NCBI RefSeq assembly: GCF_006345805.1
Contig: NC_043004.1
Span: 3,472,001 to 3,536,000, forward strand
Length of the DNA stretch: 64,000 nucleotides
Direction of reading: 5' to 3'
Source: Octopus sinensis
Lineage: Eukaryota
Shown one piece after another: positions 13,035 through 20,149 of the stretch. A program made the position numbers. Every line of letters starts with the position of its first letter. The first letter of the stretch is position 1.

Positions 13035-16000
13035 CATATAATTATGTGTGCGTGCGTGTGTACATATTTGTCCTAGGTGTGATACTAAACCATATCCGGT
13101 GGTGAGGCACCAGTTCGAGAGTTCTGGGGTTCTGGGGAGAATGGAGATCCCCTTAAGTCGCCGTTACTCCAAAGATCGCTCTGACCCGAGCTCGTACTAC
13201 ATGTCAAGGTCGCATGTGTGAGTTTAATAGTGTTAGTGGCGAGACATACTGGACAGTAGCTACCCACCAGCCTGGGTAACTGCCAACTCAAGGTAACTGC
13301 CCTCCCTTGAGCATCTGAAGAAAGCATTTTAGCCAGAGACTAGAAGAAGGAAACTCTGAATTAAAACCTAAACCTGAGGACCTCGCTAACACTTGCCCAG
13401 CTTGCTGGGCAATGGCCTATGAATCCCGGGGGAAAAGAGTGGCACCAGTTCAGCACACTGCATGTCACCTAGTGGCTGCACTGCGCAAGCTCGAAGGGCA
13501 CGTCCGCAACCATCAATCCCAAGTCTTGTAGCGATGGGAAAGGAACACAAATGGCAGTTGAAAGATGACGCTGGAAGGACCGCAATACCACGTCATCACA
13601 TCCTGACTAGACCTTCAACTGCAACCACTGCGGCCGTGCTTGCCTATCCCGCATTGGCGTGCCGACGGAGAACGTGAACCAGCCCCTTTTGAATCTCCGT
13701 TCACAAAATCAGAGAGAGATAGTGAACTTATACATAGGCATATTCATACACGGGCATATAAAGAAAGGGAGGTGGAGAGAGAAAAGGAGAAGAAATTAGA
13801 AGGAAGGAATGAAAGAATGAGATAACGAATGAATCTACAGTGTCGAATATTACTTTTAATCTAAGATCGGAATAAAATCTTGCTTTCATTATTTTATTGC
13901 TTAACCAAGGCGGCGAGCTGGCAGAAACGTTAGCGCGCCGGACGAAATGCTGAGCGGTATTTCGTCTGTCGCACATGTGTTCGTGAAGTAAGAATTGCTG
14001 TTTCGTGGTGTTAATATTGTTAACAACTGTTGTTTCTTGTTAAACTGTTGAATAACTTAACTGTTGGAGTTTTCAATTGAAAACACTTAGTGCTTGTGGT
14101 AGCACGCGTTGTTCATTCCCCTTTGGGGGGAAGAATGTCGTCTAGCATGGAGCCTACCGTTGGAGCAGAAATACTTGTTTCTCCTGTTGAGAGGAGGAAA
14201 TACATGTCCGGCGAGGAGCCAACTACAGACAAGGAAATAGGGGTTTCCCCCGCTACAAGAAGGAATAGCAGAGAGGATAATATATTTGATATTTTTGGAG
14301 ATGTGTCTGAGAGCTCGTCAGAACTTTCACCAGAAGAGTTTCCGACTTTGCCAGAGAACAAAGGCATTGTGTCGAAGAGAATAATTGATGTGCCTAGCAT
14401 CCAGATAGAACCAAAAAAAGGAAAAAAAAGTTTTGCGTTGGCTGCTGGGGGTGGAACCCAGATACTGTCGACGAATAAAAGCGAAATTATGAAATACAGC
14501 AAAATGATGGAAATAAATGACAACAGTGTGAAAATTGAACCTCCGCAAAAGTTATTACAGGAAGAAAAGCAAAAAACAATAATTTTCAAAACATATTGTC
14601 TACAAAATAGAAAAATTGAAAGAATGTCAGAAGAGAAAATAGAAAAGTGCTTAAAGCCAATATTGGGCGACGTAGTATTTCTGAGAAGAGGAAAAAAATT
14701 CGGAACGGTGGAAGTAAGGTTCACCAATAAAGAAATAGCACACAAGAACTCAGTGGAAACGTTGAAAACGAACGACGTGGAGTTAATACCCTATTATATG
14801 GGGATGAGGACGTCGCGAATAAAAATTACAAGGGTCCCGCCAGAGGTCGAACCTATGTGGTTGTTGGCGGCAGTCCTAATCAAAGAGGTAGAAAAAATTA
14901 CTCTCCTCCAGGCTACCGCTACGGAAAACCCACGCTGGGATGGTAAAACATTAATCTTCTCATTCAAGCGGACCCTAAAATAATTCAAACAATTCCTGAG
15001 ACAATTGAGGTAGGGGAGGAGAACCTCGTGGTGTTTGTTGAGGGCCGAAAACCTCGATGTTTTTTATGTGGTCAATTAGGCCACATTCGAAGGAACTGCA
15101 AGGAAAATGAAGAAGAGGAGGAAGAGGAGAAAAAAGACAAAGAGGAAGAAGATAAAGAAGAAACAGATGAGAAAAAAACAACAAACAAAAGAAAAATACA
15201 ACCAGCAACCCAGCCGAGAGCGGCGACTACTACAGAACAACGACCAAAAAAGACTGCCAGAAGAGAAAAAGAAGAAAAAGGCATAATAGCCGTATACACT
15301 AAAGATACTGAGCTCATGAGAGACATTCAACTCATAAAGACTGTAAAAAAAATTGATAACCTTTCAGAGGAATTTATCAATTACGACATATATGAAGTCT
15401 CAAATAAGACTTATAGAATTCTACAAAATAAGTACAGAAAGACTGTATCTTCATTGAGATTAGATTTTAACAAGTCGATATTTCATGGATTACCAGCTCC
15501 GATCCCGCGAGAAAAGGAAAAGGTGGAGATTCCCCCTCCACCTGATAATTCTGTGTCGGTGGTGAGACGGGATTTTGACAAATCTATTTCCCAAGACCGT
15601 CCACCTCCGACCCTGGATAAAAAAAAGGTGGAGGGTCCCCCTCCACCGGACAATCCTAATTAAACAGGTAAGTGATGGCTATTCACATTGGTTGTTTAAA
15701 TGTTCATGGCCTGTTGTCAAGCTGGAAGCAAGGACGCTTTCTGAATGACATCAGGTCGAGAAATTTGGATGTAATTGTTGCAACGGAAACCCGGGTGAAG
15801 GGGCCAAGAGATCTGCTCCCCCTCCTGAACGGCTACGAGAAATACGTTTCTCCGAGTCGGGCGGGAGGTGGGGGTGGGGTGTTGGTCCTACTAAAAAGAA
15901 ACCGGGTAGCCGAGAAAAAGTTGGTTTTTTCTGACCCAGAAGGCAGGCTGGTCGTTCTCGACTTGACATTCAGTTGTGGCAAGACAATCAGGCTGGTCGC

Positions 16001-19000: not shown

Positions 19001-20149
19001 GTGTCTGTCAGAGTGTACGTTCCAAAAGAGATGGAAGTATGTTGCACGAGTGTTGTGCGTGCAAGGAACCGTGTGAATAGACGAGGAAAAAAAAAAAAAA
19101 AGGAAAAATAAAAAGGTATCAGCGGTAGATCGGGGCTTGTGGGATCGGAGCGTAACTTGATCATCGCTTCATTTGTATTGTTTTTGTACTGTGTATTCCA
19201 TTCGATTTTTATGTATTGTATTTTATTTTTGATGTCACATTTATGTAAAATCATATCGATTCACTGATCCCATCAGTTGTACTGTCCATATCTATGTTTG
19301 GCCCCCGGTGGGCAATAAAGAAATTGGTATTTCGTCTGCCGTTACGTTCTCAGTTCAAATTCCGCCGAGGTCGACTTTGCCTTTCATTCTTTCGGGGTCG
19401 ATAAATTAAGTACCAGTTACGCACTGGGGTCGATGTAATCGACTTAATACCTACGTCTGTCCTTGTTTGTCCCCTCTATGTTTAGCCCCTTGTGGGTAAT
19501 AAAGAAATAGGTATTTCGCCTGTCTTTACGTTCTCAGTTCGAATTCCGTCGAAGTCGACTTTGCCTTTCATCCTTTCGGGGTCGATAAATTAAGTACCAG
19601 TTACGCACTGGGGTCGATGTAATCGACTTAATACCTACGTCTGTCCTTGTTTATCCCCTCTATGTTTAGCCCCTTGTGGGTAATAAAGAAATAGGTATTT
19701 CGCCTGTCTTTACGTTCTCAGTTCGAATTCCGTCGAAGTCGACTTTGCCTTTCATCCTTTCGGGGTCGATAAATTAAGTACCAGTTACGCACTGGGGTCG
19801 ATGTAATCGACTTAATACCTACGTCTGTCTTTGTTTGTCCCCTCTATGTTTAGCCCCTTGTGGGTAATAAAGAAATAGGTATTTCGCCTGTCGTTACGTT
19901 CTCAGTTCGAATTCCGTCGAAGTCGACTTTGCCTTTCATCCTTTCGGGGTCGATGAATTACGTACCAGTTGCATACTGAGGTCGATCTAACCGACTTGCC
20001 CCCGAATATATATGTGTGTGTGTGTGTGTGTGTAGTAACGTATGTATGCACGTATCTGTGTATATTTGAATATAATGGTGTATGTTTTTGCGCGTGTCTA
20101 TTTTTATAAATAATATATAAATGTATATATACATATATATACACACACA

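Follow-up and report, generated by a model that had tools for sequence, protein, structure and literature searches.

An L1/Tx1-type LINE and a tailed SINE with a putative common integration point inside the head of that SINE in Octopus sinensis

How does a stack of head-less units of a short interspersed nuclear element (SINE) come to lie directly behind a long interspersed nuclear element (LINE), the whole being enclosed in one resident SINE? The question is raised by the region 13909..20005 of a 64,000-nucleotide (nt) stretch of the Octopus sinensis genome (assembly GCF_006345805.1, contig NC_043004.1, positions 3,472,001 to 3,536,000, forward strand), which was analysed as a whole and is called the window hereafter. 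Read from 5' to 3', the region consists of a head of the SINE A family, a 16-bp repeat, a LINE (LINE-A), the 16-bp repeat again, three 184-bp units (A1 to A3) and the remainder of a SINE with another 3' end (A4). This order and the unit length, claimed in an earlier note on this DNA (the original prediction), are all present in the sequence. We consider it fairly probable that LINE-A and one subfamily of the SINE, type 2, were integrated by the same machinery, 5' of GGTATTT(CG), in the SINE's own head.

The SINE census was made by BLAST, with a head-plus-unit query against the window, and the loci were then read by eye. Two SINE A subfamilies are found, which have head and core in common and unrelated 3' ends (type 1 and type 2). 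A4 carries diagnostic bases common to the type-1 copies 27839-28009, 28534-28665 and 35440-35271. The 3' end of type 2, in turn, is homologous over about 60 bp to the 3' untranslated regions (UTRs) of the LINEs of the window: SINE positions 196-229 are 88% identical to the end of LINE-A (34 bp, BLAST), and SINE positions 176-202 are 92.6% identical to positions 5803-5829 in the 3' UTR of a related element, LINE-B (27 bp, BLAST). The description of the unit terminus as LINE-like holds for the tail as a whole but not for its last bases, the units ending in GTAATAAAGAAATA and LINE-A in GCAATAAAGAAATT. SINE A type 2 combines a LINE-shared 3' tail with target-site duplications, and by these two features appears to have been mobilised by a partner LINE. 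Tandem Repeats Finder reports an array at 19291-19997 (period 184, 3.8 copies, 95% matches, score 1253), which begins within the LINE, since the final 34 bp of LINE-A resemble the SINE tail to the extent given above.

LINE-A can be assigned to the L1/Tx1 superfamily by the domains of its second open reading frame (ORF2), i.e. an N-terminal apurinic-type endonuclease, a reverse transcriptase and a C-terminal zinc motif. The Pfam matches on ORF2 are Exo_endo_phos (residues 22-229, E 2.3e-10), RVT_1 (513-754, E 3.5e-29) and zf-RVT (973-1025, E 2.3e-07), and the closest protein of solved structure is human L1 ORF2p (E 1.9e-64, residues 5-867). Two protein searches with LINE-A gave 34 and 45 matches, all at 40% identity or less and with no names beyond "exonuclease III". 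The reading frames are broken only once, in ORF1, where the frame shifts by one base beside a short A run (about 14945-14948). As ORF2 is intact this copy may be young, or the break in ORF1 may be an assembly error.

Table 1. Position of the features discussed. Numbering starts at the first nucleotide of the window; for minus-strand features the remarks give coordinates in reading order where these descend.
Feature	Position	Strand	Remarks
Host SINE head (SINE A family), ending at the integration point	13909..13955	+	BLAST: 13909-13970 vs query positions 1-61, 96.8%
Upstream 16-bp target-site duplication GGTATTTCGTCTGTCG	13956..13971	+	15/16 identical to 19326-19341
LINE-A, 5,354 bp	13972..19325	+	Flanked by 16-bp duplications
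LINE-A 5' UTR, 163 bp	13972-14134	+	
LINE-A ORF1, CCHC knuckle, split over two frames	14135-15663	+	ORF search
LINE-A ORF2, intact, 1,133 amino acids	15675-19076	+	ORF search and Pfam
LINE-A 3' UTR, 249 bp, ending GCAATAAAGAAATT	19077-19325	+	
Downstream 16-bp duplication GGTATTTCGTCTGCCG	19326..19341	+	1/16 positions differ from GGTATTTCGTCTGTCG; first 16 bp of unit A1
Unit A1	19326..19509	+	Sole array unit that would require a primary insertion
Unit A2	19510..19693	+	Recombinant: 5' part A4-like, 3' part A1-like
Unit A3	19694..19877	+	Recombinant: 5' part A4-like, 3' part A1-like
A4, partial fourth unit, remainder of the host SINE (type 1)	19878..19997	+	Type-1 diagnostic bases; truncated 3' end, then microsatellite
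Second locus (B): full tailed SINE (24340-24570), then in-register truncated unit (24571-24669)	24340..24669	+	Junction GTAGTAAAGAAATA / GGTATTTCGTCTG; units 87.9% identical
Solitary tailed SINE with head (26198-26426) in non-SINE DNA	26186..26438	+	Perfect 12-bp duplications GGTATTTGACAG at 26186-26197 and 26427-26438
Third locus (D): 5'-cut unit (28197-28349), in-register unit (28350-28533), type-1 SINE joined at head position 15	28197..28665	+	First two units 90.1% identical
Fourth locus (F): tailed SINE from position 11 (49670-49451), in-register second unit, non-SINE flank GGTTATCGAG	49263..49670	-	Junction GTAGTAAAGAAATA / AGCATTTCGTCTG; units 88.0% identical
Type-1 SINE copies	27839-28009, 28534-28665, 35440-35271, 62365-62528, plus A4 of the array		
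LINE-B (~421-5862), 68% identical to LINE-A, ORF2 broken, in a different SINE (head 387-420, rest 5863 to ~6010)	387..6010	+	Imperfect ~10-11 bp duplication TAGCTTGTCT / TAGTTTGCTT
LINE-C, 3' part of a third related LINE, ending GCTAATAAAGAAAC at 63116	63116..64000	-	Adjoins (ATCT)n-type microsatellite

The evidence for a common integration point comes from the junctions. The junction between a LINE-type tail and GGTATTTCG lies at the identical nucleotide at four separate loci with unrelated flanks: the array of the region 13909-19997 (locus A) and three others (loci B, D and F; coordinates 24570/24571, 28349/28350 and, on the minus strand and diverged to AGCATTTCG, 49450/49449). The 3' end of LINE-A adjoins the same nucleotide as every unit boundary. 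The arrangement goes beyond chance. All 12 exact copies of GGTATTTCG in the window are located in heads or unit starts of the SINE A family, half of them (6/12) being directly preceded by a LINE-type tail. When one mismatch is allowed, 19 copies are found against 13 expected in the window, which is not significant alone; it is the position of the exact copies that carries the argument.

The same point can be approached from the tails. The window contains ten tails of the LINE-A/type-2 kind, seven of which adjoin the SINE's own site (six at exact GGTATTTCG and one at AGCATTTCG, at the same SINE position), the remaining three being followed by GGTATTTGACAG in non-SINE DNA, by GGTTATCGAG and by head position 15 of another SINE, respectively. 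If the non-independent junctions A1/A2 and A2/A3 are dropped, 5/8 tails stand at the SINE site and 1/8 at a look-alike site. The latter belongs to the solitary tailed SINE, the 12-bp duplications of which start with GGTATTT, the heptamer that also opens the SINE-internal site and that has a chance of about 1.1e-4 per site, given the base composition. LINE-A occurs as one copy, which gives no frequency, and this copy lies with a 16-bp duplication at the site common to five of the eight independent tail junctions. Such a duplication implies a bottom-strand nick at the junction nucleotide and a top-strand cut 16 nt downstream. Thus in the window LINE-A and the tailed SINE share an integration point immediately 5' of GGTATTT(CG) in the SINE head. 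For the window this bears out the proposal of a site common to the LINE and the SINE, by the same nucleotide at four loci and by the GGTATTT duplication of the solitary SINE.

At loci B, D and F the units stand in register, as they do in the main array, and at locus D Tandem Repeats Finder detects a period of 184 with 2.5 copies. At these three loci a unit resembles its neighbour no more closely than it resembles units of other loci; for instance D1 and C1, from different loci, are 94.1% identical. They are not local duplicates, because identity within a locus is no higher than between loci, and we take them to be of independent origin, which fits one addition per locus. The last unit of arrays A and D is of type 1, the other subfamily, which agrees with the addition of tailed units to a SINE already in place. 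No insertion of a whole SINE at the site, recognisable by a unit length of about 247 bp and by a second head, is seen in the window, a small sample.

The main array has another history. Within alignment columns 10-64, A2 and A3 follow A4 at all six sites where A1 and A4 differ, three of these six variants being private to the locus; A1 keeps the family-consensus state wherever A2, A3 and A4 have private variants in common (three sites). Within columns 79-117, A2 and A3 follow A1 at 8/8 informative sites. One breakpoint, between columns 64 and 79, accounts for all 14 informative sites, so that A2 and A3 are recombinants, and only one primary unit addition (A1) has to be assumed. A private base is common to A2 and A3, which show 98.9% identity (A1 to A3 being mutually 95.7-98.9% identical); most simply, A1 crossed over unequally with A4 and the recombinant was then duplicated. 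Target-primed integration could mimic the pattern if the overlap was exceptionally long (64-78 nt), but even then the common private base speaks for one of the two having been copied from the other. Growth of this array by repeated retrotransposition, as originally proposed, finds no support in these 14 sites; the array grew mainly by unequal crossover. The comparison of units within and between arrays, set beforehand as a check, came out divided: the units of array A are nearest neighbours, those of the other three loci are not, and the junction is constant at 4/4 loci.

These observations can be arranged in one scheme. LINE-A and the type-2 SINE would be integrated at the SINE-head site by target-primed reverse transcription. 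When SINE RNA is copied inside another SINE, the top-strand overhang of 12-16 nt would equal an internal stretch of the new complementary DNA (cDNA); the overhang could then anneal to the cDNA and prime the second strand. The outcome would be exactly one head-less unit of 184 bp instead of a whole SINE of 231 bp, with the site recreated. On the minimal history of the main array, a type-1 host SINE would have received one type-2 unit (A1) at the site, two recombination steps (the crossover with A4 and the duplication) would have yielded A2 and A3, and LINE-A would have entered the head-proximal copy of the site once, before or after the crossovers. The addition of exact units that regenerate the target, part of the original prediction, agrees with units in register and a recreated site, the annealing step being what we infer.

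Every junction between tail and target contains the inverted repeat GAAATA-GG-TATTTC (e.g. 19504-19517), to which the last bases of the element and the first of the target both contribute, and at these junctions the bottom strand beside the nick bears GAAATA, the same as the 3' end of the RNA.

Could the specificity lie in the RNA, rather than in the endonuclease? Read-through transcripts ending in GGUAUUUCG... might pair with the bottom strand at a nick or break in a look-alike sequence, the endonuclease being perhaps weakly specific. Head and units are free of T4 runs as far as 20085, and read-through is possible on this account. The target of the solitary SINE matches the SINE site in its first seven bases, GGTATTT (8 of the first 9), a stretch short enough for base pairing. 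Moreover, co-transcription with the target is discussed as strengthening the target-specific integration of other elements in the excerpts available of Kojima 2015 (PMC4494074). But LINE-A uses the same nucleotide although its own transcript has no SINE after the tail unless it is read through, and the related LINEs of the window are flanked differently, by a different SINE head and by a microsatellite, which is the pattern of endonuclease-determined Tx1-type targets as far as those excerpts describe them (PMC4494074). We regard an RNA-based specificity as unlikely.

A second alternative is that the junction was inherited. A dimer (head plus two units) would have arisen once, been transcribed whole by RNA polymerase III (Pol III) and been retrotransposed as a dimer. 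The units without a T4 run make such read-through transcripts plausible, loci D and F have the same order of markers (GATTAAATAAG in the first unit and GATAAATTAAG in the second), and the two dimers align in register with 90.5% identity over 336 bp. Against this, the in-register and cross-register identities between units of loci B, D and F are alike (means of about 90.3% and 89.8%, respectively). Both array A and array D close with a type-1 SINE, the tail of which is not expected to serve this LINE family, and the second unit 24571-24669 has no tail. A multimeric master leaves unexplained both the presence of LINE-A at the exact junction nucleotide with its 16-bp duplication and the GGTATTT at the start of the solitary SINE's duplication, and it still requires a first event of another kind. 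These points make it quite improbable.

Finally, a purely local tandem duplication of part of the SINE by slippage or unequal crossover, with the LINE there by chance, agrees with A1 to A3 being mutually nearest relatives and with A2 and A3 being demonstrable recombination products, but it is largely refuted and in our estimate highly improbable: the first junction of tail to GGTATTTCG cannot come from recombination, the junction falls on the same nucleotide at 4/4 loci, the units are not nearest neighbours at 3/4 loci and a LINE would land by chance on the exact nucleotide about once in 231 times even granted that the SINE was hit, so that local duplication seems excluded as the origin of the junction while it would account for the growth of the main array.

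Several points weigh against integration of LINE and SINE by one machinery at the SINE-head site. All counts come from a single 64-kb window with a sole copy of LINE-A. Two of the eight independent tails do not stand at a GGTATTT site. Target-site duplications, sought by eye, were found neither around the dimers 24340-24669 and 49670-49263 nor around the whole array 13909-19997; for the two dimers, insertion into a resident SINE and transposition as a dimer both fit. Locus D is rearranged and can be interpreted in part only. As to the tail, a 4-bp hairpin occurs at the same spot before AAAGAAAT in all four tails folded (stems GCCC/GGGC, UGCC/GGCA, AGCC/GGCU and GCCC/GGGU), but the folding energies are no better than those of shuffled sequences (z = 0.55, -2.15, -0.58 and -0.01) and the automatic alignment of the tails, in which LINE-B was misaligned, gave one compensatory pair only; a common tail hairpin is therefore suggestive only. 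Lastly, the homology-driven joining in register is a step that we infer, and no result attributes the specificity to the endonuclease rather than to base pairing of read-through RNA.

Does the site lie inside a Pol III promoter? It was placed beforehand between an A box and a B box. The B-box side holds, since GTTCRAATTC, which is B-box-like, is found 27 nt 3' of the integration site in every unit; the A-box side is weaker, the A-box-like TGGCAGAAACG in the head being only a loose match made by eye. Integration inside a Pol III promoter is thus plausible. With regard to the origin of the head, Rfam gave no match over the whole window at gathering score, transfer RNA (tRNA), ribozymes, 5S, 7SL and small nuclear RNA (snRNA) all being covered. 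On the intact copy 24300-24600 with E up to 10 it gave no tRNA match, and ARAGORN found no tRNA, so that both searches for a tRNA-derived head came out empty. A tandem retroelement bearing a hammerhead or other ribozyme was likewise rejected, as was a 5S, 7SL or snRNA origin of the head, in the absence of an Rfam match window-wide or, on the intact copy, at E up to 10.

Some SINE copies differ at the integration point itself. In the type-1 SINE 28534-28665, 20 nt are lost, the deletion beginning exactly at the integration point (...GCTTAGC/G ... TTAC/GTTCTC), and the copy 40857-40754 (minus strand) has small deletions at this point. Such losses could have been left behind by abortive cleavage or repair. 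The minus-strand SINE at about 6010-6201 has the first ~70 bp of its head in common with SINE A, including an unoccupied GGTATTTCG, and then a different body, which recurs at about 11100-11250.

The relatives of LINE-A have other neighbours. LINE-B lies between the A-box-like TGGCTGTGTGG and the B-box-like GGTTCAGTCCC of its host SINE, just 3' of the A-box-like motif. Three further copies of this host SINE occur in the window, all with the site empty, so a second occupant of this site was not found and a specificity of LINE-B is not inferable from it. Beside the end of LINE-C runs an extended (ATCT)n / (CATC)n / (CAAC)n repeat (region 62853-64000, minus strand); LINE-C may have targeted a microsatellite here, or its tail may have given rise to the repeat. 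Three related LINEs thus have three flanks (the SINE head, another SINE head and an (ATCT)n run), with one copy each, which proves nothing.

A wider proposal, which we hold only tentatively, is that a Tx1-like lineage has evolved a cleavage specificity for a site in the promoter-bearing head of its own partner SINE. SINE copies would then be harmless, self-renewing landing pads, and in-register additions would seed tandem arrays, the start of a satellite. Sister LINEs would have shifted to other SINE heads (LINE-B) or to microsatellites (LINE-C), and the deletions at the site would be scars of abortive cleavage. If this were true genome-wide, the pair would be one whose cargo doubles as its target, a safe-harbour strategy that scales with SINE copy number. 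It would also define in molecular terms how a dispersed SINE can become a tandem array, first by site-specific addition in a register set by homology and then by unequal crossover. The pair would furthermore supply a short recognition motif, open to testing, for a Tx1-type endonuclease, as well as a natural example of 5' joining guided by homology during target-primed reverse transcription.

Three known situations resemble this one in part. The eel UnaL2/UnaSINE1, which Kajikawa and Okada are said to have described in 2002, is reportedly a stringent LINE-SINE pair with a shared 3' tail (as cited in PMC4494074 and PMC3747384). As in that pair, the last 60 bp or so of the SINE here are homologous to the LINE 3' UTR, with a small hairpin and a terminal AAAGAAAT; unlike stringent pairs of this kind, which have no strict target choice, the present one would have a specific site, to judge from sequence alone. 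Alu elements insert into the A-rich tails of resident Alus, which gives head-to-tail Alu pairs. There too the SINE is a preferred target of its own LINE machinery and copies pile up side by side, but with a loose TT/AAAA preference and whole elements in tandem, whereas here the site would be specific and internal and the units are in register. SINE-derived tandem repeats and satellites expand by unequal crossover, much as A2 and A3 are recombinants of neighbouring units; what differs here is the seed junction, which lies at a defined nucleotide common to several loci and to a LINE insertion.

The closest published case is that of the crocodilian Tx1-Mar LINEs and SINEU SINEs, which prefer the same site in a Mariner transposon (Kojima 2015, PMC4494074). 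As far as the excerpts of that paper go, SINEU-3 copies are often in tandem, "sandwiching a TSD" (target-site duplication), which is ascribed to sequential insertion; the target duplication AGGTTCCCATCAGCAT is 16 bp; and a 3' tail shared with a LINE is not found for SINEU-1 (PMC4494074). On the same excerpts, both systems have a LINE and a non-autonomous partner at one short site borne by a repeat, with a 16-bp duplication. They differ in that the crocodilian target lies in a Mariner DNA transposon and the present one inside the head of the partner SINE, in that SINEU copies are whole SINEs separated by the duplication whereas here, owing to a target that is part of the inserted sequence itself, head-less units of 184 bp are joined in register, and in that the LINE-shared 3' tail missing for SINEU-1 is evident in SINE A type 2.

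Other sequence-specific targets of the Tx1 clade in the parts of PMC4494074 and PMC3706591 at hand are Tx1D in Xenopus (Tx1L), U2 (Keno), 5S (Mutsu), the tRNA-Leu spacer (Dewa) and microsatellites (Kibi and Koshi). Like these lineages, each with its own target (in many cases a multicopy Pol III or snRNA gene, a transposon or a microsatellite), the three LINEs of the window have three flanks. A SINE head, and especially that of the partner SINE, does not figure among the targets given in those parts of the two papers, LINE-A being placed at superfamily level. Surveys of octopus repeats list L1-Tx1 LINEs and very abundant SINEs, and in the excerpts available the SINE-head arrangement is not described (PMC13282606, PMC8967140). 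No account of a LINE with a SINE head as its target, or of SINE units arrayed in register in cephalopods, was met with in a literature that was mostly open-access, Repbase Reports and supplements lying outside it. The hint of novelty in the original prediction has accordingly to be narrowed. The general principle, i.e. a Tx1-type LINE and a partner SINE with one repeat-borne target and tandem stacking, is already published, as the excerpts of PMC4494074 show; new here would be a target inside the SINE itself and units joined in register.

Three further repeats of the window were recorded. A direct duplication of 313 bp (98.4%) brackets the region of LINE-B (1-313 and 6170-6482); both copies start inside a minus-strand SINE head, the left one being cut by the start of the window. 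A near-perfect tandem duplication of about 750-780 bp is found at 21579-22358 and 22330-23106 (99.2% identical), and an inverted repeat pair of 1 kb with 93% identity lies at 45431-46460 and 59727-60745, the two copies being about 13 kb apart.

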